64,000 bases of DNA from Dehalococcoidia bacterium (GCA_040882355.1 JBBEBM010000062.1:982-64981), one strand, 5' to 3'; shown: positions 1,085 through 61,483, numbered from the stretch's first letter. Notes: generated by a model from the sequence alone, not told the origin. Made by a program: numbers and translations.

Positions 1085-1101
1085 CCGCTCGATCGACGCA
1101 G

Positions 1102-5952: not shown

Positions 5953-5958
5953 CCCGGC

Positions 5959-20135: not shown

Positions 20136-22582
20136 GCCCGCCCGCCCGCCGCGCCGCGGCCGCAACTCCGCCCGTCGAGGCGCTGCGCAAAGTGCTGGCG
20201 CTGGAGCGCCAGCGCGGCTGCAACAACAGCGCCGTCTACGGTGGCCTGGACGGCTTCCTACACAACCTGCTGGGCGCGGACGGCTTCCCGCCCGACTCGC
20301 CCGTCGGGCAGGCGATCGGCTCGCTGCCGGAGGGCGGTTACGCGCGCCTCTCCGTCGCCGACCGGCAGGCATGGCTCGATGGCGCGTTGGCCGCCGCCGC
20401 TGGGCGCGCCGCTCCTGCCGCTCCGGTAGCCAAGCCGGCCCCTCGCGCGCGCCCCGCAGCGACGGAGGAGCGCCAGGCGCCCGTGGACGCGCCGGTGACG
20501 GTGCTCAAGGGAGTGAAGGATGCGCTGGCGGCGCGCTTCGAAAAGCTGGACGTGCGCACCGTTCGCGATCTGCTCTACCTCTTCCCGCGCCGCCACAGCG
20601 ACTTCGGGCGGCTGCGGCAGATTGCCGAGCTGACGCCGGGCTCCGAGGAGACCGTGCGGGCGCGCATCTGGAGCGCCCACGAGACGCAGCTCGGCCGTCG
20701 CAAAGGCACGGAGGCGACGGTGGGCGACGAGTCGGGCATGATGCGCGTCGTCTGGTTCAACAACCCCTACGTCGCGCGCCAGCTCCGCACCAACGAAGAG
20801 ATCGTCCTTGCCGGCCGCGTTGCTCTCCACCAGGGCCGGCCGACCTTCGAGAACCCGGAGTGGGAGCTGTGGGAGGCGAACGAGGAGCTGACGCACACCG
20901 GACGCCTGGTGCCCGTCTACCCGCTCACCAGCGGGCTCTCCGGTCGCACTGTGCGGCGCGTCGCCCGCCAGGCGCTCGACGGCTACGCGGACGCGCTCGC
21001 CGACCCGCTGCCTCAGTCGCTCCGCAAGCGGCTCAACCTGCTCGACCTGCCGGACGCGGTGCGCCAGGCGCACTACCCGGAGAGCCAGGAAGCCGTCGAA
21101 GAGGCGCGACGCCGCCTGGCGCTGGATGAGCTGCTGCCGCTTCAACTCTCGGTGCTGCTCCGCCGCCGTCAGTGGCAGCAGCCGGGCGCCGCCGACGCGA
21201 TCCGCATCGAGCCGGAGACGCTCGACTCGTTCCTGGCGACCCTGCCGTACGCGCTCACGGGCGCGCAAGAGAAGGCGCTACGTCAGCTCGTGGACGACCT
21301 GTCGCGCGACGTGCCGATGAGCCGCCTGCTCCAGGGCGACGTGGGCAGCGGCAAGACAGTGGTGGGCGCGTGCGGCCTCCTCGCGGCCGTGGTCAGCGGG
21401 CATCAGGCCGTCTTTATGGCGCCGACCGAGATCCTCGCCGAACAGCACTTTCGCACGCTCCGCGAGATCTTCGGCGCAGGGGAGAGTGAGGACACCGTCG
21501 TCGAAGCGACGCCGGCGTACCTCGATCGTCCGCTGCGCATCGCACTGCTCACAGGCAGCGTTCGCGCGAAGCAGAAGGCCGAGCTGTACGAACGCATCGA
21601 GCGAGGCGAGATCGACATCGCCGTCGGCACACACGCGCTGATCCAGCAGGGCGTTACGTTCGAGCGGCTCGGCTTCGTCATTGTCGACGAGCAGCACCGC
21701 TTCGGCGTCATGCAACGCGCGGCGCTCCGCAGCAAGGCCGCGCGTTCGGCGCACATGCTGGTGATGACCGCGACGCCGATCCCGCGTTCCCTCTACCTCA
21801 CGCTCTACGGCGACCTCGACGTCTCCGTAATCGATGAGATGCCGCCCGGCCGCAAGCCTGTCGTCACGCGTTGGTGGCCGCCCGAGCGCCGCCAGGACGC
21901 CTACGACTTCCTCCGCGAGCAGGTGGAGGCGGGTCGCCAGGCGTTCGTGATCTGCCCGCTGGTCGAGGAGTCGGAGTCGCTCCAGGTGAAAGCGGCGGTG
22001 CAGGAGTACGAGCGGCTCCGCTCGGACGTGTACCCGGACCTCGAGCTGGAGCTGGTGCACGGGCGCATGTCCGGCCGCGACAAGGACGCGGCGATGCGCC
22101 GCTTCCGCGAAGGCGCGGCGCAAGTGCTCGTGTCGACCGCGGTGGTGGAGGTGGGGATCGACGTGCCGAACGCGAGCGTCATGCTCATCGAGGGCGCCGA
22201 TCGCTTCGGGCTGGCGCAGCTCCACCAGTTCCGCGGCCGCGTCGGGCGGGGCGGCGACCAATCGTATTGCCTGCTGCTTGCCGAGAGCCCGTCGTCGGAG
22301 GCGCAGCAGCGGCTGCGGCTGATGGAGGAGACGACGGACGGCTTCCGCCTGGCGGAGGCGGACCTCCGCATGCGCGGGCCCGGCGAGTTCTTCGGCACGC
22401 GTCAGTCCGGACTGCCGGACTTCCGCGTCGCCAGCCTGCTCGACACGCGGCTCATCGAGCTGGCCCGCGAGGAGGCGGCGCGCTTGTTGGAGGAAGACCC
22501 GCATCTCGATAAACCGGAGCACGCGGCCCTTGCGCGCGACGTGACTCGCCTGTTTCAGCAGGTGACCGGTGAAGTACACTAA
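20132..22582 (+). CDS. recG: ATP-dependent DNA helicase RecG
   Basis: 816 aa. Wedge domain plus SF2 helicase motifs GDVGSGKT, DEQHRFGV, TATPIPR, QFRGRVGRG. ATGA overlap with degV. Confidence 0.9.
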   Translation: MSPPARRAAAATPPVEALRKVLALERQRGCNNSAVYGGLDGFLHNLLGADGFPPDSPVGQAIGSLPEGGYARLSVADRQAWLDGALAAAAGRAAPAAPVAKPAPRARPAATEERQAPVDAPVTVLKGVKDALAARFEKLDVRTVRDLLYLFPRRHSDFGRLRQIAELTPGSEETVRARIWSAHETQLGRRKGTEATVGDESGMMRVVWFNNPYVARQLRTNEEIVLAGRVALHQGRPTFENPEWELWEANEELTHTGRLVPVYPLTSGLSGRTVRRVARQALDGYADALADPLPQSLRKRLNLLDLPDAVRQAHYPESQEAVEEARRRLALDELLPLQLSVLLRRRQWQQPGAADAIRIEPETLDSFLATLPYALTGAQEKALRQLVDDLSRDVPMSRLLQGDVGSGKTVVGACGLLAAVVSGHQAVFMAPTEILAEQHFRTLREIFGAGESEDTVVEATPAYLDRPLRIALLTGSVRAKQKAELYERIERGEIDIAVGTHALIQQGVTFERLGFVIVDEQHRFGVMQRAALRSKAARSAHMLVMTATPIPRSLYLTLYGDLDVSVIDEMPPGRKPVVTRWWPPERRQDAYDFLREQVEAGRQAFVICPLVEESESLQVKAAVQEYERLRSDVYPDLELELVHGRMSGRDKDAAMRRFREGAAQVLVSTAVVEVGIDVPNASVMLIEGADRFGLAQLHQFRGRVGRGGDQSYCLLLAESPSSEAQQRLRLMEETTDGFRLAEADLRMRGPGEFFGTRQSGLPDFRVASLLDTRLIELAREEAARLLEEDPHLDKPEHAALARDVTRLFQQVTGEVH

Positions 22583-22588
22583 CGCCGC

Positions 22589-24133
22589 ATGCGTGAGCTG
22601 ATGCGCGCCGGCGAGAGCCCGGCGGATGGTCCGCCTCCCCACCTCACCCAACAGGCCCCAATCGTTGTAGAGGCTCCTCCTGGTGAGCCGCTGCAGGCGC
22701 GCAGGCGGTGGCCGAGCGCGAACGCGCGCTGGCTCCTGCTCGTGCTCGCCGTCGCCCTGCTGGTGCGAGTCGCCTGGGTGGCGACGGTTCAACCTGACCC
22801 TCGCGACGGCCGCTTCGACGATAGCGTCTGGTATTACAGCACCGGGCGGCTCCTCGCCGACGGCGAGGGATACGTCTATCCGCTCGATGCGCTCTGCGAT
22901 CTAGGGCAGAGGCGAGACCCAGGTATCGACTGCGCCGCCGACCCGCCGCCGACGGCGCTATGGGCGCCTGGCTACCCCCTTGTCCTATCCGCGCTCTTTC
23001 ATCTGCCCGGCGACGATGTGGCGTGGGGCCGCGCCCTCAACGTCGCGGCGGGGCTGGCGCTGGTCTGCGCCGTCTACTACCTGGGCTCGCGCCTCTGGAG
23101 CCCTCGCGCCGGCTTGCTGGCAGCGGCGATCGTCGCGCTCTTCCCAAGCCACATCTTCTTCTCCAGCCTGCTCATGACCGAACCGCTCTTCGCTGCCATG
23201 CTGGCGGGTGCGCTCTGCCTGGCGCTGGCATGGACGATGGAGCGCGACGCTCCGAAATGGAAGCTCATTGGGCTGGGGTTGGCGATCGGAACGCTGGCGA
23301 TGGTGCGCCCCGAAGCCGGCATATTGGTGGCGGTGTTCGCCGCGGTCTGGTTCATGCTCCACCCCTCATGGCGGTGGCTCGGGCAGCGGCTCGCGCTGCT
23401 GGCGCTCGGGATGGCGGTGCTGCTCGTGCCCTGGACGGCGCGCAACTGGGCGGAGATGGGCTCGCCCATCGTCGGCACGACCGGGTTGGGCCAGGTGTTG
23501 CTGCAGGCGCACCACCCGCGGGCGGGCGGCCAGCCAAACATAGGCATCGTGGACAACCTCTGGGACCAGTACAAAGGCACCGCCCTCCCCGAACGGGAGG
23601 TGCGCATGAACAGCTTCGGGGTGCGCGAGTCGATCGCGTATGCCGTGAAGCATCCCTGGAGCGACCTCAGCCGGGTCCCGGACCGGTTTGCCGCCTTCTA
23701 CAGAGGTGACCGCGGAGCGATCCAGTGGAACCAGGTGAGCGATGGAGACGGCAAGCAACTCCTCGCGTCCTCAGCGGACGGGTGGGGGCTCCTCTCCGAC
23801 ATCTACTACTACACGATCATCGGCTGCGCGGTTGTCTGCCTTCCTTTCTGGCTGCGTCGCGCCCGCGCCCAACACGGGCTCATCTTTGGCCCCTTCGCGA
23901 TCTACAGCCTGCTCTGGGCCTTCGTGTTCGTCGGCGAGGCGCGCTACCACTTCCCGCTCGTGCCGGTCTTTGCCGTGACCGCCGGCATCGGTCTGGCAGC
24001 ACTCACGGAGCGCTCGTTCGGCGGTCGGCGCGCGGCAGAGCGAGCGAGCCCTGCACTCCCCGCGCCGGTGCCTGTGCCGGAAGGCGTGTATACTCTCCTG
24101 CGAGGGCAAGAGCATGATGCTGACGGTCGGTAG
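22589..24133 (+). CDS. GT39/ArnT-like polytopic membrane glycosyltransferase (paralog of 31321-32715)
   Basis: Same loop motif as its paralog (VQPDPRDGRFDDSVWYYSTG ... ALWAPGYP ... ALFPSHIFFSSLLMTEPLFA). Confidence 0.7.
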   Translation: MRELMRAGESPADGPPPHLTQQAPIVVEAPPGEPLQARRRWPSANARWLLLVLAVALLVRVAWVATVQPDPRDGRFDDSVWYYSTGRLLADGEGYVYPLDALCDLGQRRDPGIDCAADPPPTALWAPGYPLVLSALFHLPGDDVAWGRALNVAAGLALVCAVYYLGSRLWSPRAGLLAAAIVALFPSHIFFSSLLMTEPLFAAMLAGALCLALAWTMERDAPKWKLIGLGLAIGTLAMVRPEAGILVAVFAAVWFMLHPSWRWLGQRLALLALGMAVLLVPWTARNWAEMGSPIVGTTGLGQVLLQAHHPRAGGQPNIGIVDNLWDQYKGTALPEREVRMNSFGVRESIAYAVKHPWSDLSRVPDRFAAFYRGDRGAIQWNQVSDGDGKQLLASSADGWGLLSDIYYYTIIGCAVVCLPFWLRRARAQHGLIFGPFAIYSLLWAFVFVGEARYHFPLVPVFAVTAGIGLAALTERSFGGRRAAERASPALPAPVPVPEGVYTLLRGQEHDADGR

Positions 24134-24148
24134 GCGAGGCGCGGCGAG

Positions 24149-24838
24149 GTGGTGATGGCAGCAGCCGTCGTTCGCGTGGAGCGCCAGCGATTGGAGGGCC
24201 TCGTCGCCCGTCTGGGCCACGACGACACGCCCCGCGTGTACACCGATCGAAACGTGCTCGTGCGCGAGCTGTTCTGGCGACGGCTGGGCGCGCTGCTCTC
24301 GCTCTCGCGAGCGCCTTCGCGGGCCAGAGTGCTGGACTTCGGTGGGGGCAACGGCGTGCTGATGCCCACCCTCTCCCGCCTCTACGACGAGGTGGTCTGT
24401 GTGGACCTGCGGACCGAGATGGCGGAGGAGCTCGCCCGCGCCGATGGCATCGCCAACGCGAAGATACAAGCAGGGGAGCTAAGCTCTCTTGGTCTACCCG
24501 GCGATTCCTGCGACACGATCATCGCAGCCGATGTGCTGGAGCACATCGTGGACCTGAAGGCGTTGATCGCCGAGTTCCGGCGGCTGCTGAAGCCAGGTGG
24601 CGAGCTGCTGGTGAGTGCGCCGTCTGAGAACGCCTTCTACGAGCTTGGCCGCAAGGTGTTTCGCTACGTCAAGCCGGACGACCACTATCACACCGCTGCG
24701 TTCATCGAGCGGACGATTACGGACGACCTGCGCCTGGCTTCACGACGGTACTTTCCTTTCAACCTGTCGCCGCTCGCGGTGTTCTCGCTCGCTCGCTTCG
24801 TGAAGCCGGACTCAGGCGCGGGGGTGCGGGAAACGTGA
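24149..24838 (+). CDS. Class I SAM-dependent methyltransferase
   Basis: VLDFGGGNG motif I, DVLEH, LLKPGGELLVSAP. GTG start. Confidence 0.7.
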   Translation: MVMAAAVVRVERQRLEGLVARLGHDDTPRVYTDRNVLVRELFWRRLGALLSLSRAPSRARVLDFGGGNGVLMPTLSRLYDEVVCVDLRTEMAEELARADGIANAKIQAGELSSLGLPGDSCDTIIAADVLEHIVDLKALIAEFRRLLKPGGELLVSAPSENAFYELGRKVFRYVKPDDHYHTAAFIERTITDDLRLASRRYFPFNLSPLAVFSLARFVKPDSGAGVRET

Positions 24839-25572
24839 CAGGCCGGAGCGGACCCCGCCGGAGGGCGGAAGCCCTGGTGCTGATACCCGTCTACAACGAA
24901 GCGGAAGCGCTGCCCGGGCTGCTGGAGGAGCTGCGCGAGCAGGCGCCGTCGTGCGACGTGCTGGTGATAAACGACGCGTCGACCGATGACAGCGCCGCTG
25001 TCGCCCGTGCCGCCGGCTTTCCAGTGCTGGACCTCTGCCTGAACCTCGGCATTGGGGGTGCGGTGCAGGCCGGCTTCAGGTACGCCCTGGAGCACGGCTA
25101 CGAGATCGCCGTCCAGGTCGACGGCGATGGCCAGCACCCTCCGAGCGCGATCGAGCAGATCGTGGCGCCGGTCCGAGCCGGCGCTTGCGAGATGACGATC
25201 GGCTCGCGCTTTCTGGATGCTGAGCACGACGGGGACTTTCTTCGCCGGCAGGGCACGCGCCTGCTCTCCTGGCTCTGCACGCTCTTCACCGGCCAGCGCA
25301 TCACAGACGCGACGTCGGGCTTCCGCGCATACGGCCACCAGGCGCTCCGCTATCTGGCCGCGTACTACCCGGCCGACTACCCCGAACCGGAGGCGATCGT
25401 CTTGTTGCGCCGGCGCGGCCTTACCATTCAGGAGGTGCCCGTGCGCATGCGACCCAGACAGGGGGGGCGGTCCTCCATCAAGGGCCTTCAGGCCGTCTAC
25501 TACATGGCCAAGGTGAGTCTGGCCCTGTTGCTGGCGGTCTTCAAACAGGGAACGGCCCGCCAGCCAGTCTAG
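24835..25572 (+). CDS. GT2 glycosyltransferase, Dpm1/GtrB-like polyprenol-phosphate sugar synthase
   Basis: LVLIPVYNEAEAL, VINDASTDDS, QVDGDGQHPP (DxD region). GTG start overlaps the upstream TGA. Confidence 0.85.
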   Translation: MTGRSGPRRRAEALVLIPVYNEAEALPGLLEELREQAPSCDVLVINDASTDDSAAVARAAGFPVLDLCLNLGIGGAVQAGFRYALEHGYEIAVQVDGDGQHPPSAIEQIVAPVRAGACEMTIGSRFLDAEHDGDFLRRQGTRLLSWLCTLFTGQRITDATSGFRAYGHQALRYLAAYYPADYPEPEAIVLLRRRGLTIQEVPVRMRPRQGGRSSIKGLQAVYYMAKVSLALLLAVFKQGTARQPV

Positions 25573-25584
25573 GGAGGTGGTGGT

Positions 25585-25986
25585 GTGCGTCCCATCAACC
25601 TGCTCATCATCATTGTCGCGGTGGGCGTCGCCGCCACCGTCGTGTTCTACGTGCGCCGGTGGCGGCTGAAGGAGCAGTACTCGCTGCTCTGGCTGATCCT
25701 GGCGGTGGGGATGGTCGTGCTGGCGGCGGCCCCGGAGCTTGTTGAGTGGTTTGCCGCCAAGCTGGACGTCTACTACGCGCCGTCCATCCTCTTCTTCCTG
25801 GGCCTCGCCTTCGTCGCGGTCATGCTCTTCCACTACTCCCTGGAGATATCACGCCTGTCCGACCAGAACCGAGAACTGGCGCAAGAACTCGGCCTGCTCA
25901 GGGCCCGGCTCGAAGAGACGGCGGCGGCGGCGCCTCCGTTCAAAGACGAGCCGTTGACCGAGGGGCCCGCAGGTGGCGCAGGTTGA
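25585..25986 (+). CDS. DUF2304-family small membrane protein (usual partner of Dpm1-like GT2)
   Basis: 133 aa, 3-4 TM, signature RRWRLKEQYSLLWL ... YYAPSILFFLGLAF ... LEISRLSDQNRELAQEL. Confidence 0.7.
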   Translation: MRPINLLIIIVAVGVAATVVFYVRRWRLKEQYSLLWLILAVGMVVLAAAPELVEWFAAKLDVYYAPSILFFLGLAFVAVMLFHYSLEISRLSDQNRELAQELGLLRARLEETAAAAPPFKDEPLTEGPAGGAG

Positions 25987-26027
25987 GGTGGACGGCGCCG
26001 GGTGCCAGGCCCCGCTACTGATCGCGC

Positions 26028-27680
26028 ATGTCCTTCCCGATCTACGTCCTGACCAGCCTCCTCATCTCCGCAGCGACCATGGGTCTCGTCCTGCTCGCGC
26101 GCAAGCGCTGGATGGCGGTCGCCGCCGCGCTCGTTGGCGCGACCGGGCTGCTCCTCCTGCACGGGCCAGCCTACTTCCACTTCTTCGCTGACGACTCGTA
26201 CATCAGCCTGCGCTATGCGCGCCACCTCGCGGACGGTCTCGGCCCGAACTGGAACAGCGAGGGCCGCGTCGAGGGTTACACGAACTTCCTCTGGATGGCG
26301 ACGCTCGCCGGCGTCGCGAAGCTCGGCGGCGACCTCGTCGACTCGGCGCGCGCCTTCGGCTTCCTGTCGCTGCTCGCCACGATCGTGGCCGTCTACCTGA
26401 TCTGGCAGCTCTGGGCGGACGACGATCCGGAGAGCGGTGTCGCGAGCCCGGTAGTGCTCGCCGCGGCGCTGATCGGGATCGCTCTCACGGATGGTGTCGT
26501 GTTCTGGGGCTTCTCTGGCATGGAGACGCCGCTCTTCATGGCGCTGATCACCGGCGGCGCGTATTGCTACCTGCGCGAGCGGCGCGGGGCGGGCCTCGTT
26601 CCCTGGTCGGCCGTCGTCTTCGCCGCCGCCGCGATGACGCGCCCGGAAGGCGTGCTGGCGGCCGCCGTTACCGGCGCGTTCGTGCTGGGCGAGGCGCTGT
26701 CGGGCGGCGACCGGCGGGCGCGCGCGCGCGTCTTGTTCTGGGCCGCCGTCTTCGCGGCCCTATACGGTTCGTACTTCCTCTGGCGCTACAGCTATTACGG
26801 GTACCTCTTCCCAAACACGTTTTACGCCAAGGCCGGCGCCACCAGCGCTGTCTTCGATCGCGGCCTCAACTACGTCTGGGTCTACGGGCTCCGCTATCAG
26901 CTCCTGGCGCTGGCCGCGGGCGTGACCGCGCTCCTGCTGAGGGCGCGCCTGCGCGTGGATGCGGCGTACGTGCTGGCGCTAACCGCCGTGTTGCTCGCCG
27001 AAATCGTCTACGAAGGCGGCGACGGCTTCGGGCACGGGCGGTTCATCGTGCCGCTGCTCCCGCTTCTCTACCTGGGCGGCATCGCCGGAGGGGCGGTGGT
27101 GCTCAGGCGGCTGGCGCTCGCCCCTGTGCCGGCCGCGGCGTTGGCGACGGCTGTCCTGACGCTCGGCGCGATGTCCCTCACGCGCGCGTCCATCGACCCG
27201 AGCTTATCGCTTGAGGAGCGCTCCCAAGCCGATGGCAAGGAACTCTCGATCTGGCTTAGCGAACACACGCCGGAGGACTACACGATAGCCGCGTACGCCG
27301 TAGGCATCGTTGGCTACTACAGCGATCGTGACATCCTGGACCTGCTCGGCATCAACGACGCCACGATCGCGCACACGGATGTTTCCAATCTGGGCGCAGG
27401 CCTCGCCGGGCACGAGAAGTACAACACTGACTACGTGCTGGAGCGCGCGCGGCCCGAGCTGATCATTGCGGGCCTGGGCGAGCCCAGGAGGCTGACCGAA
27501 GAGCAGCTTCGTGCCAGGCTCAGCTCGCTGGCAGACGCTGATGTCCGATCACACCTCTTCACCTCGCCCAGGGTCTGGCAGCTCTACGACGTGCGCGCTG
27601 TGCAGATCGGCAACCGCTGGTTCCACCTGCTCCAGCGCGCGGACACGGTATCGGAGTGGCAGGCGCCGGACCTGTTCTAG
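26028..27680 (+). CDS. 550-aa polytopic membrane protein, putative GT-C-fold glycosyltransferase; paralog A
   Basis: About 11 TM. First-loop acidic motif FADDSYISLRYARHLADGLGPNWNSEGRVEGYTNFLW. C-terminal soluble domain. Highly similar to 29096-30748. Confidence 0.7.
   Translation: MSFPIYVLTSLLISAATMGLVLLARKRWMAVAAALVGATGLLLLHGPAYFHFFADDSYISLRYARHLADGLGPNWNSEGRVEGYTNFLWMATLAGVAKLGGDLVDSARAFGFLSLLATIVAVYLIWQLWADDDPESGVASPVVLAAALIGIALTDGVVFWGFSGMETPLFMALITGGAYCYLRERRGAGLVPWSAVVFAAAAMTRPEGVLAAAVTGAFVLGEALSGGDRRARARVLFWAAVFAALYGSYFLWRYSYYGYLFPNTFYAKAGATSAVFDRGLNYVWVYGLRYQLLALAAGVTALLLRARLRVDAAYVLALTAVLLAEIVYEGGDGFGHGRFIVPLLPLLYLGGIAGGAVVLRRLALAPVPAAALATAVLTLGAMSLTRASIDPSLSLEERSQADGKELSIWLSEHTPEDYTIAAYAVGIVGYYSDRDILDLLGINDATIAHTDVSNLGAGLAGHEKYNTDYVLERARPELIIAGLGEPRRLTEEQLRARLSSLADADVRSHLFTSPRVWQLYDVRAVQIGNRWFHLLQRADTVSEWQAPDLF
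26241..26755. repeat. 515-bp tract 100% identical to 29315-29829 (inside paralog A)
   Basis: Base-by-base comparison of the two copies. The flanking sequence is only about 85-93% identical. Confidence 0.85.
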
Positions 27681-27709
27681 GCTCCGGGGCGCCCTCAGTC
27701 ACGACGCCG

Positions 27710-28177
27710 CTAGCAAAACGTACCGAAGGCGGTTACGCTCACGAACCCATCGCCGTCCACGTCGGTATTCGGGTTGGCCGCCGGGGCCGCCAGCGGTGCG
27801 GCGCCGAAGTCCATCACCACCTCTCCAATGTCGCTCACGGAGACGATCCCGTTCTTGTTGACGTCGGATGCGGGGCAACCATTGCGTGGGATCGAGACCG
27901 TCGGCGGCAGGCAGAAGCCCGGGCCACCCACCATGGATACGATGATCCCAAGATCGCCCGAATTCACGAGACCGTCCTTGATCGCGGGAAAGCCTGCGAG
28001 CATGTCCACCTCAGGCGGGGCTGGGGGAATCGTCTGCCCGAAATACGATAGCTCGATGGCGACATCGTTGCCATCGACCTCGCCGTCGTTGTCCAGGTCG
28101 GGACAGCCTGGGCCCGCGGCCTGGGCGACACCTCGCGCCGGGTCTCGACTAGGGCTCCACAGCCTCCTATGTCCGGG
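27710..28177 (-). pseudogene. Second copy of the small dockerin-type repeat protein; no in-frame start or signal peptide found (possible truncated duplicate)
   Basis: Frame encodes ...CPDLDNDGEVDGNDVAIELSYFGQ ... DVNKNGIVSVSDIGEVVMDFG ... NPNTDVDGDGFVSVTAFGTFC*, about 90% nt identical to the copy at 28180-28689. Upstream in frame there is no ATG/GTG/TTG for about 50 codons. The listed 373-aa ORF extension overlaps the other copy out of frame and is judged spurious. Confidence 0.35.
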
Positions 28178-28179
28178 CC

Positions 28180-28689
28180 CTAGCAGGTGGTGCCAAACAT
28201 GACTACGGCCATGCCGATGTCTCCGACGCTGACGAATCCATCGCCCGAGATGTCGGTATTCGGGTTGGACACCGGGGCCGCCGGCGGTGCGGCGCCGAAG
28301 TCGGTCACCACTTCTCCAATGTCGCTCACGGAGACGATCCCGTCCTTGTTGACATCGGCTGCGGGGCAACCCTTGCGTGGGATCGACACAGTTGGCGGCA
28401 GGCAGAAGCCCGGGCCACCTCCGGCCGCGACAGCGGCCGAGATGTCCGAGACGGCGATAAACCCGTCCTTGATCAGATCGACCTCGGGTGGCGCCGGAGG
28501 AACGGACTGGCCAAGATACGTTGTTACGATACTGATGTCGTTCGTATCGACGTCGCCGTCGTTGTCGAGGTCGGCGCAGGGGGTGCCCGTGGCCCGAGCG
28601 ACACCTCCGCCGGCCGGCGCGACCAGACCGAGAAACGCCAGCGCAACGCCTGTCAGAATGAGAAAACATGCCGTCTTCATGACGACCAT
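28180..28689 (-). CDS. Small secreted protein with three dockerin-type (EF-hand-like Ca-binding) repeats
   Basis: ATG at 28689 preceded by GGAGA. Signal peptide MVVMKTACFLILTGVALAFLGLVAPAGGGVARA. Repeats DLDNDGDVDTNDISIVTTYLGQ, DVNKDGIVSVSDIGEVVTDFG, NPNTDISGDGFVSVGDIGMAVVMFG. Confidence 0.65.
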   Translation of the reverse strand: MVVMKTACFLILTGVALAFLGLVAPAGGGVARATGTPCADLDNDGDVDTNDISIVTTYLGQSVPPAPPEVDLIKDGFIAVSDISAAVAAGGGPGFCLPPTVSIPRKGCPAADVNKDGIVSVSDIGEVVTDFGAAPPAAPVSNPNTDISGDGFVSVGDIGMAVVMFGTTC

Positions 28690-29095
28690 TCCCTTTCTCC
28701 GCTCGCGCGCGCGAGCGGAACTTCCCACCAGGGGGCTTGGCAGGGCTATGGGAGCTGTGCAGAGGTGAGGGAAGGGGGTTGGCGCATGCGTACCTCCCTG
28801 CTGCGCGACCGTGGCCTGCCTGCGGACGCACAGATAGTAGTCCTCCGCGCCCGCGTTGTCAACCGCGACTCGCGCTACCGAATGCCTGTGCCCATCGATA
28901 CACTGCCGGTGTGAGGGTCGGCGCTTTCACATCTGCTCCACCAGGGACGATGTCCCCTGTCGCGGGCGTTCGACTGCCGGCGAACGCAGACAACGCGGTT
29001 AGGCCGCCCGCCAAATCCATGCGCCATGGAGCGGGCGTCCGCATGCGGCGCTCGTCGAGGCGACCGGCCGGCTCGAATGATGAGACTCTAGTCTG

Positions 29096-30748
29096 ATGTT
29101 GCAGTCCTTCCCTGTCCTCGTCCTGGCGAGCCTCCTCGTATCCGCTGCGACTATGGGCGCCGTCCTGCTCGCGCGCAAGCGTTGGATGGCGGTCGCCGCC
29201 GCGCTTGCGGGCGCGACAGGCTTGCTGCTCCTGCAGGGCCTTGGTTATTTCGACTTCGCCAACGATGACTCGTACATCAGCCTGCGCTACGCGCGCCATC
29301 TCGCCGACGGTCTTGGCCCGAACTGGAACAGCGAGGGCCGCGTCGAGGGTTACACGAACTTCCTCTGGATGGCGACGCTCGCCGGCGTCGCGAAGCTCGG
29401 CGGCGACCTCGTCGACTCGGCGCGCGCCTTCGGCTTCCTGTCGCTGCTCGCCACGATCGTGGCCGTCTACCTGATCTGGCAGCTCTGGGCGGACGACGAT
29501 CCGGAGAGCGGTGTCGCGAGCCCGGTAGTGCTCGCCGCGGCGCTGATCGGGATCGCTCTCACGGATGGTGTCGTGTTCTGGGGCTTCTCTGGCATGGAGA
29601 CGCCGCTCTTCATGGCGCTGATCACCGGCGGCGCGTATTGCTACCTGCGCGAGCGGCGCGGGGCGGGCCTCGTTCCCTGGTCGGCCGTCGTCTTCGCCGC
29701 CGCCGCGATGACGCGCCCGGAAGGCGTGCTGGCGGCCGCCGTTACCGGCGCGTTCGTGCTGGGCGAGGCGCTGTCGGGCGGCGACCGGCGGGCGCGCGCG
29801 CGCGTCTTGTTCTGGGCCGCCGTCTTCGCCGCCCTGTACGGTTCGTACTTCCTCTGGCGCTACAGCTACTACGGGTACCTCTTCCCGAACACGTTTTACG
29901 CCAAGACGGGGACGACGAACGACCTCTTCAACCGGGGCCTGGAGTACGTCTGGTTCTACGGGCTCCGCTATCAGCTCCTGGCGCTGGCCGCGGGCGTGAG
30001 CGCGCTCCTGCTGAGGGCGCGCCTGCGCGTGGACGCGGCGTACGTCCTGACTCTTTGCGGCGTTCTGCTCGCGGGGGTGGTCTATGAGGGCGCGGACAGC
30101 TTTCCGCACGGGCGGTTCATCGCGCCATTGGTGCCGCTCCTTTACCTGGCAGGCATCGCCGGAGGGGCGGTGGTGCTCAAGCGGCTGGCGCTCCCTGCCA
30201 GACCCGCGGCTGTCGTTGCGACAGTGCTGCTGACGCTCGCTGCCCTGTCGCTCGCCCGCACTTCCCTCCATCCTGGGCTCGCCGCAGAGAAGCAGCTCCA
30301 GAGGGACGGCATAGACCTATCTGTCTGGCTGAACGAGAACGCGCCTGAGGACTACACCATCGGCGCGTACGGCGTGGGAGTGGTCGGCTACTACATCGAC
30401 CGCGATATCCTGGACCTGCTCGGCCTCAACGACGTCAAGATCGCGCACACGGATGTTTCCAATCTGGGCGCAGGCCTCGCCGGCCACGAGAAGTCCAATC
30501 CGGACTACGTGCTGGAGGAAGCGCAGCCGGAGCTGATCATCCCCACCTTGGGCGATTTCGTCAGGCGCACCGAAGATCAGCTGCGAGAAGGCTTTGAGGG
30601 GCTGGCTGATGCGCGACGGTTGCTGCTGGCGGACGAGCGCCTTTGGGAGCGTTACGACGTCCGCGCTGTGAAGATCGGCAACCGCTGGTTCCACCTGCTC
30701 CAGCGCGCGGACACGGTCTCGGAGTGGCAGGCGCCCGGCCTCTTCTAG
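29096..30748 (+). CDS. 550-aa polytopic membrane protein, putative GT-C-fold glycosyltransferase; paralog B
   Basis: Same architecture and motifs as 26028-27680. The C-terminal third is more diverged and the last approximately 75 nt are near-identical again. Confidence 0.7.
   Translation: MLQSFPVLVLASLLVSAATMGAVLLARKRWMAVAAALAGATGLLLLQGLGYFDFANDDSYISLRYARHLADGLGPNWNSEGRVEGYTNFLWMATLAGVAKLGGDLVDSARAFGFLSLLATIVAVYLIWQLWADDDPESGVASPVVLAAALIGIALTDGVVFWGFSGMETPLFMALITGGAYCYLRERRGAGLVPWSAVVFAAAAMTRPEGVLAAAVTGAFVLGEALSGGDRRARARVLFWAAVFAALYGSYFLWRYSYYGYLFPNTFYAKTGTTNDLFNRGLEYVWFYGLRYQLLALAAGVSALLLRARLRVDAAYVLTLCGVLLAGVVYEGADSFPHGRFIAPLVPLLYLAGIAGGAVVLKRLALPARPAAVVATVLLTLAALSLARTSLHPGLAAEKQLQRDGIDLSVWLNENAPEDYTIGAYGVGVVGYYIDRDILDLLGLNDVKIAHTDVSNLGAGLAGHEKSNPDYVLEEAQPELIIPTLGDFVRRTEDQLREGFEGLADARRLLLADERLWERYDVRAVKIGNRWFHLLQRADTVSEWQAPGLF
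29315..29829. repeat. 515-bp tract 100% identical to 26241-26755 (inside paralog B)
   Basis: Direct comparison; see 26241-26755. Confidence 0.85.
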
Positions 30749-30793
30749 CCTCGTCCGCGACGGGCTGTCAACCCCCGGCGGAACGCTCGAGAC

Positions 30794-31324
30794 GTGGTCA
30801 TGCCATTCACGTTCCCAGCGGTTGCTGAGTATACTACCGGTGTGACCGGCCGCCGCGTTCATGTCTGCTCCACCAAGTACGACGGCTCCCCGCACTGGGA
30901 GTTCGACTCCTGGCTTGTGCATGAGGAAGGGGCGCTCCTCGTCACACATAACTTCGCCGGGCAGGAGCTGCAGACCTCGGACGGGCCATGGACCACACCC
31001 TACGACACCCGGAACCACTTCTGGGCCGACCGCTGGTACAACGTCATGCGCATGGACCTGCCCCAGGGCGGCGGGTTGTACGGCTGGTACTGCAACGTCA
31101 CCACCCCCGCCGTCTACGACGGCGAGTGCGTGCGCTACGCCGACCTTGACCTCGACCTGTTCGTGCCCGCTGAGGGCGAGCCACAGGTGCTGGACGAGGA
31201 CGAGTTCCTGGAGAATGGCGCGCGCATGGGGTACCCGCCGGATGTCGTCGACCAGGCGAGGCTCGCGCTCGACCGATTGGTCGCCCTGGCGGTCGGCGGC
31301 CGGTTTCCCTTCGATCGACGATGA
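30794..31324 (+). CDS. Conserved hypothetical protein, possibly DUF402/FomD-like nucleoside-diphosphate-compound hydrolase
   Basis: 176 aa with an acidic cluster (YADLDLDLFVP, LDEDEF) and WYxNV-like segment (GWYCNVTTP). The family call is a recollection, not verified. Confidence 0.45.
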   Translation: MVMPFTFPAVAEYTTGVTGRRVHVCSTKYDGSPHWEFDSWLVHEEGALLVTHNFAGQELQTSDGPWTTPYDTRNHFWADRWYNVMRMDLPQGGGLYGWYCNVTTPAVYDGECVRYADLDLDLFVPAEGEPQVLDEDEFLENGARMGYPPDVVDQARLALDRLVALAVGGRFPFDRR

Positions 31325-32715
31325 CCGCCCCAGGCGAGGCCGGCGCTTCGATAGGCGCCTTCGCGAACGGCGAGACCGCCCGCGCCGCACCCTGGGCGCC
31401 GGCCAGATGGTGGTCGCGGGAGATGGCGATGGTTGCCGCGATCGTCCTGCTCGGCGTGGCGCTGCGGGTGCTCTGGATCTCGTACGCGCAGCCCGATCCT
31501 AGCGACGGCCGTTTCGATGACTCGCGCTTCTATGACAACTTCGCTTCCAGGATTGCGAACTGGGAGGGCTATATCATGCCCGACGAGCCCGCCGAGCTGC
31601 AGTGGGCACCCGGGTACGCGGGCGGCTACCCTACGGCGGTCTGGCCGCCCGGCTACCCGGCCCTGCTGGCCGTCCCCTACAAGCTGTTCGGCCACGATCC
31701 TGCGTACGGACGCTTCATCAACGTCGCTGCGGCAGGCGTGAGCATCGCCCTCGTCTACGCGATCGGACAGCGCCTCTTTAGCAGGCAGGTCGGCCTGATC
31801 GCGGCGGCCTTGCTGGCGGTGTTCCCCGGTCAGATCTTCTTCGCGAGTCTCATCGTCACGGAGTCCGTGTTCACGACGTTGTTGCTGGCGCTCGTCTGGG
31901 TCCTGGTCGTGCTTAACGATGGTCCGCGCCCGCCTCCCGTGCTCGCCGCCGCGGGCGTGGGCCTCCTGCTCGGCGCGATGGCTCTCGTGCGCTCCGAAGG
32001 AGTCATGCTGGTGCTCGTCGCCCTGGCCTTCTGGCGCCTGCTGGTGCCGAGCTGGCGCGCGATGGCGCCGCACGCCGGGCTGCTCCTCCTGGGCACGGCG
32101 CTCGTCGTCGCGCCGTGGACCGTGCGAAACTACGTCACAATGGACGGCTTCGTGCTCACCTCCTCAGGTGGGTCGCATACCTTCTGGGCCGGCCATCACG
32201 CGGACATCTACGCCGATGGGGGTCTGGCAGACATCCGCGCTGCGCTCGAACGGGAACGCGAGTACGAGGAGCTGCCCTACCCCGAGCGCGAGCTCAGGTT
32301 CGAGCAAGACCTGCTGGAGGAAGCGCTCCGATACGCGGTTTCGCATCCGGGGATCGAGCTGAGGAACCTGGGCCTCAAGGCGTACTACCTGTTTCGTGAC
32401 GACGCCAGCGCCCTCGACTGGGTCCAGATCAAGCCCGTCATCCCGAAAGACGACGTGACCGTCCTCGCGGGCGTCGCCAACGGCGTCTACTACGTGGTGC
32501 TGCTGCTCGCTGTGTTGGGCCTGGCGCTTGACCGCCGGTGGCGCGACCGGCGACACGTCCTGTTGCTCCTCACGATGGCTGTTTGGGTGGCGACGCACCT
32601 GCTCTTCCTCCCCAACCCGCGCTACCACGCGCCCCTCATCCCAATCATCAGCCTCGCTGCCGCATGTGGAGCCGTGGCGATGTACGAGCGGCTCAGGTCA
32701 TCAAGCCGGCCGTAG
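31321..32715 (+). CDS. GT39/ArnT-like polytopic membrane glycosyltransferase (paralog of 22589-24133)
   Basis: ATG overlaps the upstream TGA (ATGA). Motifs AQPDPSDGRFDDSRFYDNF ... LQWAPGYAGGYP ... AVFPGQIFFASLIVTESVF parallel the paralog. Confidence 0.65.
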   Translation: MTAPGEAGASIGAFANGETARAAPWAPARWWSREMAMVAAIVLLGVALRVLWISYAQPDPSDGRFDDSRFYDNFASRIANWEGYIMPDEPAELQWAPGYAGGYPTAVWPPGYPALLAVPYKLFGHDPAYGRFINVAAAGVSIALVYAIGQRLFSRQVGLIAAALLAVFPGQIFFASLIVTESVFTTLLLALVWVLVVLNDGPRPPPVLAAAGVGLLLGAMALVRSEGVMLVLVALAFWRLLVPSWRAMAPHAGLLLLGTALVVAPWTVRNYVTMDGFVLTSSGGSHTFWAGHHADIYADGGLADIRAALEREREYEELPYPERELRFEQDLLEEALRYAVSHPGIELRNLGLKAYYLFRDDASALDWVQIKPVIPKDDVTVLAGVANGVYYVVLLLAVLGLALDRRWRDRRHVLLLLTMAVWVATHLLFLPNPRYHAPLIPIISLAAACGAVAMYERLRSSSRP

Positions 32716-32821
32716 CCTGGCCAGGCACGCAACACGCAGGCTGGAGAGAAGCCAGCGGATTGGGTATGCTCCCCGCGTAGCTCAGGCGACAGGCCGCGCT
32801 CGAAATGCGAGGACGATACGT

Positions 32822-33586
32822 ATGACTGAGAAGCAAACGCCACTCGCCGGGATCCCCAGCGACTGGAACTCGAACGTCCCATCGACCACCGAGTTTCAGG
32901 CAGGCGTTAACTGGGCGCACGACCGGCTCGTCGAGGAGCCGTGGGTGATCTCGAAGGTGCGTCCGGGCGAGCGAATCCTCGACATCGGCTCGGCCACGAG
33001 CCGCTATCTGGTCAAGTTCCCGTCCGACTGCGAGATCTACGGCATCGACATCCGGCCCGGGCCGCCGCAGCCCGGCGTCGCCCTCATGCGCGGCGATATC
33101 ATGCAGGCGCCGTTCCGGCCCGGCACGTTCGACACGATCACCTGCATCTCGACCATCGAGCACATGGGCTGCTTCGTCTACGGGCAGCACGTCGACCGCT
33201 TCGGCGACGAGGTTACGATGCGTCACATGCGGCTGCTGCTGCGACCCGGCGGGCGGCTCCTGCTGACGACCCCCTACGGCAAGGGCGCCGCCTACTCCTG
33301 GATCCGCATCTACAGTCCACGGATGTTCCAGCGGCTCATTGCCGGCTATCGAACGCGCTCGGTGGAGTACTATCGGCGCGATGGCGAGCGGTACGTCCCA
33401 TGCTCTCCCAGGGAGCTGCGCAACGCAGACATCGACATGCAAAAGCTGCGCTCTGACGGGATCATACTCACCGAGCTGACGCCTAGCGGCGGCCTCTCGT
33501 TCTTGCTCGGCCGCATCTCACTGCGCATCCGGCGCTTCTTGCATGAGCGCGCCGGCCGGCCCAAGTTCTGGATCGATCCGGCATGA
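32822..33586 (+). CDS. SAM-dependent methyltransferase-fold protein
   Basis: ILDIGSATSRY (motif I-like), IYGIDI, LLRPGGRLLLTTP. ATG at 32822 after GAGGA. The listed longer ORF start is upstream extension. Confidence 0.6.
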   Translation: MTEKQTPLAGIPSDWNSNVPSTTEFQAGVNWAHDRLVEEPWVISKVRPGERILDIGSATSRYLVKFPSDCEIYGIDIRPGPPQPGVALMRGDIMQAPFRPGTFDTITCISTIEHMGCFVYGQHVDRFGDEVTMRHMRLLLRPGGRLLLTTPYGKGAAYSWIRIYSPRMFQRLIAGYRTRSVEYYRRDGERYVPCSPRELRNADIDMQKLRSDGIILTELTPSGGLSFLLGRISLRIRRFLHERAGRPKFWIDPA

Positions 33587-35244
33587 TCAAGCACGAGATC
33601 GCCCTCCTGGTCGATGAGGCCGTGCAGCGCGCGCGTGACGCGGGCGCCCTGCCTGGCGTCGCGATGCCCGAGACCGTGATCGAACGGCCGCAGCGCCCGG
33701 AGCACGGCGATTACGCTACCAGCTTGCCTCTGCGCCTCGCCCGCGCCGCCCGCGCGAACCCGATGGAGCTGGGCCAACGACTGGCGGGCCACGTTCCGGC
33801 TTCCGATGCCGTCGACCGCGTCGAGGTGGCGCCGCCCGGCTTCATCAACTTCCACCTCAACGAAGCGTGGCTCGCCCGCCAGGTCGAGACGATCATCGCT
33901 GCCGGCGCAGACTTCGCGCGGGCACCCGTTGGCCAGGGCCAGTTGGTGCAGGTGGAGTTCGTCAGCGCCAACCCCACGGGTCCCCTTCACGCCGGCAATG
34001 GACGCTGGGCGGCGATGGGCGGCGCGCTCGCCCGCGTGTTGCGCGTCGCCGGCTACAACGTTGAGACGGAGTACTACTTCAACGACGCCGGCAACCAGGT
34101 CGATGCCTTCGGGCGCACGCTCTACGCCCGCTACCAGCAGCTCTTCGGTCGCGAGGCGCCGGTGCCCGAGGACGGCTACGTCGGCCACTACATGGTCGAA
34201 CTGGCCGAGCAGGCGCGCGAGCGCTTCGGCGAGGACATGCTGCGGCCGCCAGGCGAACCGCCGCCCGACGAGCTGGCGCGCTTTGGCATCGAAGAGGTGA
34301 TGGCCTGGATCCGCCGCGACCTGGGAGACCTGGGCGTCCACTACGACCACTGGTACCAGGAGCAGACCGTGTTCGAGGCGGGCCACTTCGACAAGGTGAT
34401 GTCGCTCTTGCGCGAGAAGGGCCTCGTCGTCGAACGCGAGGGCGCCGTCTGGTTCGCCGCGACGCAGCTCGGCGCCGACAAGGACGAGGTGCTCGTGCGC
34501 TCCACCGGCGTGCCGACCTATCTCGCGACCGACATCGGCTACCACTACGACAAGTTCCTCGTGCGCGGCTTCGACCGCGTCGTCGACATCTGGGGCGCCG
34601 ACCACCAGGGCCACGTGCGGCCGCTCCAGCTCGCCGCTGAGGCGATGGGCCTCGAGCCCGAACGGCTGACGATCATCATCGGCCAGCTCGTCACCCTGCG
34701 CCGGGGCGACGAAGTGCTCAAGCTCTCGAAGCGCAGCGGCGACATCGTCACCCTGCGCGAGGTGATGGAGGAGGTGGGGAAGGACGCCTGCCTCTACTTC
34801 TTCCTCTCTCGGTCCGCCGACGTGTCGATCGACTTCGACCTGGAGCTGGCGAAGACGCAGAGCGCGGAGAACCCTGTCTACTACGTCCAGTACGCGCACG
34901 CGCGCATCGCCGGCATCCTGGAGAAGGCCGGCGAGAAGCTTGGCGACGCCGGCGGCGGTGACGTATCGCTGCTCACCCATCCGGCGGAGCTGGCGTTGGT
35001 GCGCAAGATGCTCGTGCTGCCGGAGCTGGTCGAGGCGATCGCGCGCACGCTGGAGCCGCACCACCTGCCCCACTACGCCCAGGACCTGGCGACCGCCTTC
35101 CACGATTTCTACGAGAAGTGCAAGGTCGTCGATGACGAGCAGCCGGAGCTCTCGAGGGCGCGGCTGAAGCTCGTCGCGGCAGCGAAGGCCGTGCTCGCCA
35201 CCACCCTCGACCTCATGGGCATGTCCGCTCCCGACAAGATGTAG
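33583..35244 (+). CDS. argS: Arginine--tRNA ligase
   Basis: 553 aa. Class I HIGH-region variant (SANPTGPLHAGNGR), anticodon-binding C-terminal DALR domain, ends ...PDKM. ATGA overlap with the upstream gene. Confidence 0.9.
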   Translation: MIKHEIALLVDEAVQRARDAGALPGVAMPETVIERPQRPEHGDYATSLPLRLARAARANPMELGQRLAGHVPASDAVDRVEVAPPGFINFHLNEAWLARQVETIIAAGADFARAPVGQGQLVQVEFVSANPTGPLHAGNGRWAAMGGALARVLRVAGYNVETEYYFNDAGNQVDAFGRTLYARYQQLFGREAPVPEDGYVGHYMVELAEQARERFGEDMLRPPGEPPPDELARFGIEEVMAWIRRDLGDLGVHYDHWYQEQTVFEAGHFDKVMSLLREKGLVVEREGAVWFAATQLGADKDEVLVRSTGVPTYLATDIGYHYDKFLVRGFDRVVDIWGADHQGHVRPLQLAAEAMGLEPERLTIIIGQLVTLRRGDEVLKLSKRSGDIVTLREVMEEVGKDACLYFFLSRSADVSIDFDLELAKTQSAENPVYYVQYAHARIAGILEKAGEKLGDAGGGDVSLLTHPAELALVRKMLVLPELVEAIARTLEPHHLPHYAQDLATAFHDFYEKCKVVDDEQPELSRARLKLVAAAKAVLATTLDLMGMSAPDKM

Positions 35245-54763: not shown

Positions 54764-54853
54764 GTGACCTGGAGAACAAGGAGGGAGGGAACACGCGCTT
54801 TGCAGAAGGCGCGCCCGACGGCAAACTCGCTCGTGGGAACCCGAACCGGTAGC

Positions 54854-55630: not shown

Positions 55631-55633
55631 GCC

Positions 55634-58179: not shown

Positions 58180-58189
58180 GAGCCGCCTC

Positions 58190-58618: not shown

Positions 58619-58651
58619 CCGGGAGGCCCGGTCCTCCCCGGAGGCATCATC

Positions 58652-59524: not shown

Positions 59525-59545
59525 GCGAGAGAGGGTCGGGCTGGG

Positions 59546-60307: not shown

Positions 60308-60308
60308 A

Positions 60309-60446
60309 CCTTGTACCTCGTATCACAATCAGCGCGAACGGTCAAGATCGCGCAGGGGCAGGCAGTGGGGCGGCGCTTCCGCAGTAGGGGGCTCCCGGCG
60401 TTCGTTTCCTTGCCCGCGCGAATCGATTGTGATACACGGTACAAGG
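60309..60446. promoter_or_regulatory. Mirror-image pair of about 28-bp elements (CCTTGTACC-nn-GTATCACAATC...) abutting the starts of the divergent cupredoxin and ctaA genes
   Basis: Left arm 60309-60336 and the reverse complement of the right arm 60415-60446 match at 22 of 24 core positions. The core GTATCACAATC/GATTGTGATAC is a perfect 11-mer. Confidence 0.5.
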
Positions 60447-60455
60447 AGATTGCTC

Positions 60456-61481: not shown

Positions 61482-61483
61482 CG

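Follow-up and report, generated by a model that had tools for sequence, protein, structure and literature searches.

The window analysed here, 64,000 nucleotides (nt) of a contig from the metagenome-assembled genome (MAG) of a member of the Dehalococcoidia, has a G+C content of 68% and encodes two paralogous membrane proteins of 550 amino acids (aa), the products of genes A and B, which bracket two small genes for dockerin-module proteins, dock1 and dock2, on the opposite strand. By profile comparison and structure prediction, the 550-aa proteins are glycosyltransferases (GTs) of the GT-C(A) fold that belong to an AftB-like branch and are not AftB orthologues. The pairing of such GT-C enzymes with mini-dockerin proteins, to which an earlier note on this DNA had drawn attention, does not constitute a conserved system, and the insertion of the dockerin genes is specific to this lineage. 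Taking all evidence together, we consider it fairly probable that the AftB-like GT-C enzymes glycosylate the cell envelope with sugar from a lipid-linked donor and that the dockerins are a lineage-specific addition. GT-C glycosylation with a lipid-linked sugar donor is a known kind of process. The products of genes A and B are identical to WEE64_12745 and WEE64_12760, respectively, and their open reading frames (ORFs) have exactly the plus-strand borders that the earlier note gave them. The central features are:

26028-27680, plus strand: gene A (WEE64_12745), predicted AftB-like GT-C membrane glycosyltransferase, 550 aa
26241-26755, plus strand: 515-bp run within gene A that is identical to 29315-29829 (longest identical run in the alignment)
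27710-28141, minus strand: dock2, 5'-truncated double-dockerin copy (NCBI: 27710-28003, 97 aa, WEE64_12750)
28142-28179, no strand: spacer with a fossil of a GT-C 3' end, duplication junction (from the alignment of the dockerin units)
28180-28689 (NCBI start 28680), minus strand: dock1 (WEE64_12755), double dockerin, probably secreted, 166-169 aa (Pfam Dockerin_1, 3.4e-9)
28834-28862, minus strand: sigma-70-like promoter candidate upstream of dock1, TTGACA-17-TACTAT (10/12 consensus matches only)
29096-30748, plus strand: gene B (WEE64_12760), predicted AftB-like GT-C paralogue, 550 aa (83% protein identity to A)
35357-36232, plus strand: 291-aa protein with a C-terminal dockerin (own dockerin hidden Markov model (HMM), 8e-26; Pfam Dockerin_1, 20.9 bits, just under the cut-off)

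Genes A and B and their family

Gene A found no match in Pfam or in a direct sequence search of the PDB; information came solely from the family profile and the fold search. With the profile, AftB was the sole match in the PDB (E 1.9e-13), with its catalytic DD motif aligned. The structure predicted for the 550-aa protein (predicted local distance difference test, pLDDT, 89.9; predicted template modelling score, pTM, 0.91) contains a polytopic membrane core that is superposable on solved GT-C enzymes, and the model has the GT-C(A) fold. The counterparts of D61-D62, E172 and R221 of AftB in gene A are D55-D56, E166 and R205, respectively, and none of these gene A residues varies in an alignment of 32 homologues. 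R372 of AftB lies beyond the stretch aligned by the profile, and the invariant R338 is a candidate counterpart. In AftB, D62 is catalytic and the D62A variant is inactive, E172 contacts the sugar, and R221 is essential and contacts the phosphate (PMC12041299). In the model, D55-D56 start a helix (55-68), which follows a transmembrane hairpin with an Arg/Lys-rich inner loop. The profile match to AftB and the invariance of the catalytic residues together indicate that the earlier description of these proteins as GT-C-like was correct.

The NCBIfam models gave sub-threshold matches only, i.e., to the putative glycosyltransferases LA_3751/LA_3752 (NF047440; 35 and 33 bits, under the cut-off of 200 bits) and to AftB (equivalog model NF041481), which gene A matched with 24 bits (E 9e-6; cut-off 1050) and gene B did not match. 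A word-seeded search yielded 365 homologues, mostly from Chloroflexota/Dehalococcoidia and labelled hypothetical, some of which are named arabinofuranosyltransferase by the Joint Genome Institute (JGI). Pattern scans of two DNA collections returned more than 585 relatives in each, from Chloroflexota, Ignavibacteria, Zixibacteria, Myxococcota, Planctomycetota, Acidobacteriota and other phyla. The 550-aa family, which has neither a studied member nor a Pfam model, is large and occurs widely in Chloroflexota and in several other phyla. Its hosts here, the Dehalococcoidia, are a poorly understood and mostly uncultured class. Of the relatives of AftB found here outside the actinobacteria, this family is the closest; AftB itself has the mycobacterial cell wall as its site of action.

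AftB, the terminal beta-(1->2)-arabinofuranosyltransferase of Mycobacterium and Corynebacterium (PDB 9dlf/9dlh), shares with the A/B family the catalytic DD motif, the sugar-contacting Glu and the phosphate-contacting Arg. However, A and B are found in a member of the Dehalococcoidia and not in an actinobacterium, they are present as a tandem pair, and no genes of the decaprenyl-phospho-arabinose pathway were seen beside them. Moreover, the adjacent GT2 gene, which is of the Dpm1/GacI/PpgS type, would argue for a hexose or N-acetylhexosamine donor rather than for arabinofuranose. The position of the GT-C gene beside recG is conserved in Dehalococcoidia, and a core function in the envelope may be proposed from this synteny.

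A long form of the AftB-like GT-C, of 674-690 aa, carries a C-terminal carbohydrate-binding module (CBM) that resembles CBM4/9/22. It was found in five of the fetched loci, i.e., L004 (3136-5208), L088 (8001-10025), L169 (534-2603), L170 (9557-11626) and L171 (8500-10569), and its CBM suggests that the acceptor is a glycan. The extension was also considered as a candidate cohesin, but when its 150 residues were folded, they gave a CBM4/9/16/22-like jelly roll, and no cohesin was among the matches.

At the DNA level, the 515-bp run shared by A and B (26241-26755 = 29315-29829) is perfectly identical. The number of synonymous substitutions per synonymous site (dS) between the genes is 0.01 inside this tract and 0.5-0.6 outside it, which is a signature of gene conversion; the tract reflects either gene conversion between the paralogues or an assembly effect in the MAG. 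Identity between A and B is 71-100%, whereas the GT-C pairs of relatives are 44-52% identical, and both A and B resemble the type found at the second GT-C position in relatives. Hence, the possibility that they are the orthologues of the relatives' old first- and second-position paralogues was rejected, as both are second-position-like and too similar to each other. The higher identity and the shared second-position type point to a younger duplication or to homogenisation of the pair.

The dockerin genes, their relatives and their insertion

Both small ORFs match Pfam Dockerin_1 above its cut-off (22.9), dock1 with 37.2 bits for its 182-aa ORF and dock2 (27710-28141) with 37.4 bits, in agreement with the dockerin repeats recognised earlier. 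When started at 28689, dock1 encodes 169 aa, and from the start used by NCBI (28680), 166 aa. Its ATG is preceded by a GGAG-type ribosome-binding site, and a typical Sec signal peptide, MKTACFLILTGVALAFLGLVAPAGGGVARA, can be read from the sequence; the protein is probably secreted. The signal peptide is followed by two dockerin modules and nothing catalytic or scaffold-like. Where the earlier note had counted three repeats, there are four EF-hand-like loop-helix segments, which make up two complete modules, each bracketed by a conserved pair of cysteines; these four cysteines are conserved in two related proteins, P0122 and P0126. Both dockerin genes lie on the strand opposite to the GT-C genes and have their own promoter-like site.

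Non-cellulosomal dockerin-like modules are widespread in bacteria and archaea. Like those and the type I dockerins of cellulosomes, the module described here consists of a duplicated Ca-binding loop plus helix of ~22 residues, and it scores above the Dockerin_1 cut-off. It differs from known dockerins in that each module is bracketed by a Cys pair and in that dock1 consists of a signal peptide and two modules only. Furthermore, no cohesin was detected nearby, i.e., among the ~45 ORFs of the window that were scanned with Pfam, and the host looks aerobic (caa3 oxidase), with no cellulosome context.

The earlier description of two tandem minus-strand proteins of approximately 170 aa with signal peptides holds for dock1 but not for dock2, which has neither a signal peptide nor a canonical start. 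Homology of dock2 to dock1 begins at the last residues of the signal peptide. When its frame is followed past the stop codon of dock1, no ATG, GTG or TTG is met, and the 97-aa product annotated by NCBI starts from an internal ATG. Its last repeat is short of 7 residues, and its segments number three and a half. The spacer of 38 nt between the two genes (28142-28179) is a degraded copy of the last ~20 nt of the GT-C gene plus the stop codon, and the duplicated unit of ~480 bp, which is arranged head-to-tail, extends from the tip of gene A to approximately codon 27 of the dockerin gene. Thus, the GT-C fossil in the spacer shows that dock2 arose from a head-to-tail duplication of ~480 bp, and, since the duplicated unit ends at about codon 27, dock2 never had a signal peptide. 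Two other scenarios were rejected. Read-through or a frameshift that joins dock1 and dock2 does not apply, as the frames differ, the spacer is a fossil of a GT-C 3' end, and dock2 was truncated from its origin. A single tandem duplication of a combined GT-C and dockerin unit does not apply either, since the homology between A and B ends at the borders of the coding sequences and the dockerin unit is only ~480 bp, despite the similar dS of the dockerin pair (0.63) and of A/B. The ratio of nonsynonymous to synonymous substitution rates (dN/dS) is 0.37 for dock2 versus dock1 and 0.16 for dock1 versus its orthologue; by this estimate, the constraint on dock2 is relaxed, not demonstrably absent.

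At the N terminus of the 291-aa protein there is a hydrophobic segment (signal or anchor), which is followed by a domain of ~190 aa without an assigned family and by a C-terminal dockerin of the dock1 subtype, whose module is 48% identical to module 2 of dock1. Its gene interrupts the neighbours argS and the inositol monophosphatase (IMPase) gene, which are adjacent in L002 and L006. Pro-rich segments with Ser or Thr join the dockerin modules, i.e., SVPPAPPEV, LPPTVSIPRK and AAPPAAPVSNPNT. The G+C content at third codon positions (GC3) of the three dockerin genes (27710-28689 and 35357-36232) is 0.76-0.78, versus 0.81-0.92 in the neighbouring genes, a difference that later acquisition or different expression might explain.

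Only one full-length homologue of the small protein, P0122 (65% identity), was found in the word-seeded search; its gene lies beside one for an ABC ATPase on a 2.2-kb contig. An exhaustive profile search for the module yielded 703 matches. Among them, P0126 (165 aa; on a 25-kb contig) is another stand-alone two-module dockerin protein, P0124 (682 aa; on an 86-kb contig) and P0128 (451 aa; from a Dehalococcoidia MAG) contain 4-7 Cys-bracketed modules with Pro/Thr linkers, and P0125 (610 aa) is an enzyme with the same module at one end; P0128 can also be regarded as a larger, terminally tagged protein. The Cys-bracketed dockerin is a little-known module, which organisms without a cellulosome context have as a stand-alone protein, in poly-module proteins and on exoenzymes.

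In syntenic relatives, the surroundings of the GT-C genes are free of dockerins. A JGI contig and L002 (RBG_16_68_14, the closest genome) have the order recG, GT-C, GT-C, DUF402, argS, IMPase, without dockerins; in L086, recG and two GT-C genes are followed by unrelated genes; in L087, two GT-C genes are located downstream of a recG-like match; and in L006, a single GT-C gene is followed by DUF402, argS and IMPase. In the RecG-syntenic two-copy relatives (the JGI contig, L002, L086 and L087), the GT-C genes are 3-40 nt apart, and none of these relatives has dockerin genes between or beside the pair. The first GT-C gene of L002 (1382-3035) matches in two pieces, 1382-2161 and 2208-3035, which suggests that this copy is frameshifted or disrupted. 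Relative to the JGI contig and L002, the genome studied here has four insertions in one conserved block:

22589-25986: PMT_2, methyltransferase, GT2 and DUF2304 genes
27710-28689: the two dockerin genes
31321-33586: PMT_2 and methyltransferase genes
35357-36232: the gene for the 291-aa dockerin protein

The dockerin survey covered all ORFs of 171 fetched loci (~2.2 Mb) and was performed with an HMM built from the modules, which replaced a strict loop regular expression that under-counted and had missed L004 34-2124. Dockerins were present in only three of the 171 loci, all with a long-form GT-C: L004 encodes two RCC1 or PhoD-like proteins with dockerins, L088 five dockerin proteins (four arylsulfotransferase-dockerin proteins and one repeat protein), and L169 one RCC1-PhoD-dockerin protein. 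Dockerin-tagged secreted enzymes were, therefore, found beside the long-form GT-C in three of the five long-form contexts examined; in the other two, L170 and L171, there are PhoD or RCC1 neighbours and no dockerin was detected. A small dockerin gene beside a GT-C gene was seen in 0 of the ~20 close contexts. The three close contexts of ~20 that do have dockerins are a plain count, to which no significance is attached. A secreted 367-aa neighbour of the GT-C in L083/L084 (10188-11291) looks dockerin-like by eye (DCVVDARDAQAIAFRWG, DNDIDASDLQTVFARFG); as the L083 protein was not significant with our own HMM or with Pfam, it was left out of the count.

Thus, the pairing that the earlier note had described is not conserved as far as the small proteins are concerned: the syntenic two-copy relatives are devoid of dockerins, and the only full-length homologue of the small protein in the word-seeded search neighbours an ABC ATPase. 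What did turn up in relatives are dockerin-tagged enzymes beside the long-form GT-C. For want of a conserved adjacency, the dockerins are of less importance here than they had first seemed to be.

Probable envelope glycosylation and the alternative readings

The neighbourhood of genes A and B is the glycosylation island described in the earlier note, with GT2 and DUF2304 genes upstream and DUF402 and PMT_2-type GT-C genes downstream, as identified with Pfam and NCBIfam. Its remaining genes are:

22589-24133, plus strand: PMT_2-type GT-C membrane glycosyltransferase, 514 aa (Pfam PMT_2, 34.7 bits; PMT, 22.8 bits, cut-off 22.7)
24149-24838, plus strand: class I S-adenosylmethionine-dependent methyltransferase, 229 aa (Pfam Methyltransf_11/23/25)
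24835-25572, plus strand: GT2 of the polyprenyl-phosphate-sugar synthase type (Dpm1/GacI/PpgS/AglJ-like), 245 aa (Pfam Glycos_transf_2, 72 bits)
25585-25986, plus strand: DUF2304 small membrane protein of the GacJ/Rv3632 type, 133 aa (Pfam DUF2304, 89 bits, cut-off 25.5)
30794-31324, plus strand: DUF402 protein of the NtdP/PRK13662 type, 176 aa (Pfam DUF402, 59.5 bits; NCBIfam; synteny)
31321-32715, plus strand: second PMT_2-type GT-C, 464 aa (Pfam PMT_2, 46 bits)
32822-33586, plus strand: methyltransferase, ~254 aa, DUF268/Methyltransf_23 (overlaps the start of argS by 4 nt)

These genes form two plus-strand runs, one consisting of degV, recG (20132-22582), PMT_2 GT-C, methyltransferase, GT2, DUF2304 and gene A, and the other of gene B, DUF402, PMT_2 GT-C, methyltransferase, argS (33583-35244), the 291-aa dockerin gene and the IMPase gene; dock2 and dock1 lie between A and B on the minus strand. 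Intergenic gaps in both runs are below 50 nt or negative up to argS and ~110 nt around the 291-aa gene, and the small and negative gaps suggest two operons.

In the window, GT2, DUF2304 and the AftB-like GT-C make up a compact module. The GT2 gene is directly followed by the DUF2304 gene after a gap of 12 nt, and gene A starts 42 nt past DUF2304 on the same strand; the three genes are probably part of one operon. In NCBIfam, the GT2 matched AglJ (2.8e-25), PpgS (1.4e-21) and dolichyl-P-hexose transferase (1.8e-14), all under the equivalog cut-offs. GacI and PpgS, two polyprenyl-phosphate-sugar synthases, have the DUF2304 proteins GacJ and Rv3632, respectively, as binding partners that stimulate them, and a GT-C on the outside of the membrane uses the resulting lipid-linked sugar (10.1101/180810). 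A polyprenyl-phosphate-linked sugar is the putative donor of the window enzymes, given their conserved Arg and Glu, which are donor contacts in AftB, and the adjacent GT2/DUF2304 genes.

In the account that we favour, the GT2 and its DUF2304 partner would load sugar from a nucleotide sugar onto polyprenyl phosphate at the cytoplasmic face of the membrane. The lipid-linked sugar would be flipped across the membrane, and, at the outer face, the AftB-like GT-C would move it onto a cell-envelope glycan by means of the Asp-Asp in its first loop and the conserved Glu and Arg. This logic would be that of GacI/GacJ/GacL and of PpgS/Rv3632/GT-C. A and B would be tandem paralogues that are partly identical through gene conversion, dock1 a secreted tag-only protein with two Cys-clamped dockerin modules and its own promoter, and dock2 a by-product of the ~480-bp tandem duplication. 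The location of the dockerins between A and B is most likely due to accretion of cell-surface genes into one envelope island and not to a dedicated enzyme-partner pair.

Two groups of known systems come close to this scheme. GacI/GacJ/GacL of Streptococcus pyogenes and PpgS/Rv3632 plus GT-C of M. tuberculosis perform lipid-linked side-chain glycosylation of wall polysaccharides, and they share with the window a GT2 synthase gene immediately followed by that of a DUF2304 partner, with a GT-C gene in the cluster. However, the GT-C of the window is from another, AftB-like family, no GacK-type flippase was found, and the GT2/DUF2304 pair is not located beside this GT-C family in the other loci examined. 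In the GT136 three-component systems, side chains are added extracytoplasmically by a GT-C with a C-terminal CBM (Kelly et al. 2024, PMC11127046). A CBM at the C terminus is also present in the long-form relatives of A and B, but the window proteins are of the short form, without a CBM, and the GT-C family differs. Also, the donor synthase is a GT2 here and not a polyprenyl-phosphoribose synthase dependent on phosphoribosyl pyrophosphate, and there is no MATE flippase.

Several observations weigh against the envelope-glycosylation account. The identity of A and B to AftB is just 20%, and the NCBIfam score of 24 bits compares with an equivalog cut-off of 1050; donor, acceptor and activity of the GT-C enzymes are predicted only. 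No flippase, i.e., no GtrA, Wzx or MATE protein, was found among the ORFs scanned at 19-37 kb, some small ORFs excepted. Elsewhere, just four family members, all of them distant, have a GT2 gene within 10 kb (directly upstream in L145), and DUF2304 occurs beside no other member in the loci examined; the three-component link of GT2, DUF2304 and GT-C may, therefore, be specific to this genome. As to the dockerins, the open frame of dock2 has been kept, with the dN/dS of 0.37 given above, and the gene may not be dead. Four insertions of glycosylation and dockerin genes into one block look less like random accretion, and, together with the recurrence of dockerin-tagged enzymes beside long-form relatives, they leave room for a functional tie. 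Finally, the sequence originates from a MAG, and the 515-bp identical tract is possibly an assembly effect.

PMT_2-type enzymes are of relevance for such a tie. The first PMT_2 gene (22589-24133) begins 6 nt past the recG stop codon; both it and the second one (31321-32715) are missing from these positions in syntenic relatives, and their products are 34% identical to each other. The product of the first is 31-35% identical to those of PMT_2-like genes in L089 and L169 and 27% identical to that in L170. These PMT_2-like genes, whose products are 27-35% identical to the two of the window, lie near an AftB-like GT-C gene, i.e., at L089 11722-12990 and at L169 2711-4042 (directly adjacent in both) and at L170 4735-6159 (same cluster). 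Their recurrence beside the AftB-like GT-C in three contexts suggests that the two GT-C types work together.

An unlikely alternative to envelope glycosylation is protein O-glycosylation, in which the PMT_2-type and AftB-like GT-C enzymes, fed by the Dpm1-like GT2, would modify Ser/Thr residues in the Pro-rich segments of the dockerin proteins; the double-dockerin proteins and the 291-aa protein would then be substrates encoded beside their enzymes. Actinobacterial Ppm1 and PMT, a protein O-mannosylation pair, offer a parallel, and a PMT_2/PMT-like GT-C and a Dpm1-like GT2 are encoded here in one same-strand run. Ser and Thr are present in the Pro-rich segments that join the dockerin modules, the module relatives P0124 and P0128 have 4-7 repeats with long Pro/Thr linkers, the three dockerin genes lie within 8.5 kb of the five GT-C genes of the window, and dockerin proteins with Pro/Thr linkers adjoin long-form GT-C enzymes in L004, L088 and L169. 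However, the pairing is missing in syntenic relatives, the CBM of the long form points to a glycan and not to a protein as acceptor, and AftB, the closest characterised homologue, acts on arabinan. Moreover, the NCBIfam model for protein O-mannosyltransferase gave 16 bits versus a cut-off of 800, and the dockerin genes would be transcribed separately, given their promoter candidate (consensus match).

It is quite unlikely that, within one Dehalococcoidia clade, AftB-like and PMT_2-like GT-C enzymes are tied to a non-cellulosomal display system of Cys-clamped dockerins. Equally doubtful is the role that the enzymes would have in such a system, i.e., to O-glycosylate the Pro/Thr linkers of tagged exoenzymes or to make a surface glycan that binds the modules, and tag-only proteins such as dock1 would, just as tentatively, be adaptors or regulators. 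If true, this would give dockerins a role outside cellulosomes without the need for a cohesin. The co-inserted glycosylation and dockerin genes, the recurring PMT_2-like GT-C enzymes and the tagged enzymes beside long-form relatives support both of the more adventurous readings, i.e., O-glycosylation of the Pro-rich dockerin proteins and binding of dockerin modules to a glycan made by these enzymes.

The probability is low that the GT-C enzymes make or modify a wall glycan or an envelope layer that the dockerin modules bind, either directly or via a putative cohesin-like receptor; in this reading, dock1 would be an adaptor for dockerin-tagged exoenzymes, their competitor or their cross-linker. 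Genes for dockerin-tagged proteins (PhoD-like, RCC1 and arylsulfotransferase) lie beside that of the long-form GT-C in L004 (two), L088 (five) and L169 (one), larger proteins such as P0125 and P0128 carry this module as a terminal tag, and dock1 lacks a catalytic domain and has just two binding-type modules. These observations have to be set against the absence of a Pfam cohesin match among the ~45 window ORFs, a long-form extension that is a CBM and not a cohesin, and dockerins in just three of ~20 close contexts; also, binding by the dockerins is a prediction.

That the duplication, or part of it, is an artefact of MAG assembly, i.e., a repeat-induced chimera or a collapsed strain variant, is highly improbable, for although the window derives from a MAG contig and the perfect 515-bp run is flanked by sequence with a dS of ~0.5, A and B are both complete, in frame and diverged on either side of the tract, tandem pairs of the GT-C gene occur in at least five independent relatives (including P0054/P0062 and P0057/P0065), and the duplication anatomy at the dock1/dock2 junction is coherent.

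Other genes of the window

The DUF402 protein was described earlier as possibly DUF402/FomD-like. The DUF402 assignment stands, but NtdP/PRK13662 (E 1e-18 to 7e-21) is closer than FomD (E 0.009). Its gene is a conserved neighbour of the GT-C pair in relatives (synteny in the JGI contig, L002 and L006). Rfam and tRNA scans of the window gave no matches.

A second glycosylation cluster is located at 886-7926 and comprises genes for a GT4 (886-2310), a methyltransferase (2307-3167), a 610-aa protein without a Pfam family (3164-4996), an LPG_synthase_TM protein (4993-5952) and a third PMT_2 GT-C of 655 aa (5959-7926, minus strand), which brings the GT-C genes in the 64-kb window to five in total. 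A class A penicillin-binding protein with transglycosylase and transpeptidase domains is encoded at 14260-17085 on the minus strand, and a caa3-type cytochrome c oxidase cluster with CtaG and a UbiA-family gene at 54764-62419. From these penicillin-binding protein and oxidase genes, this Dehalococcoidia lineage, unlike Dehalococcoides, appears to make peptidoglycan and to respire oxygen.

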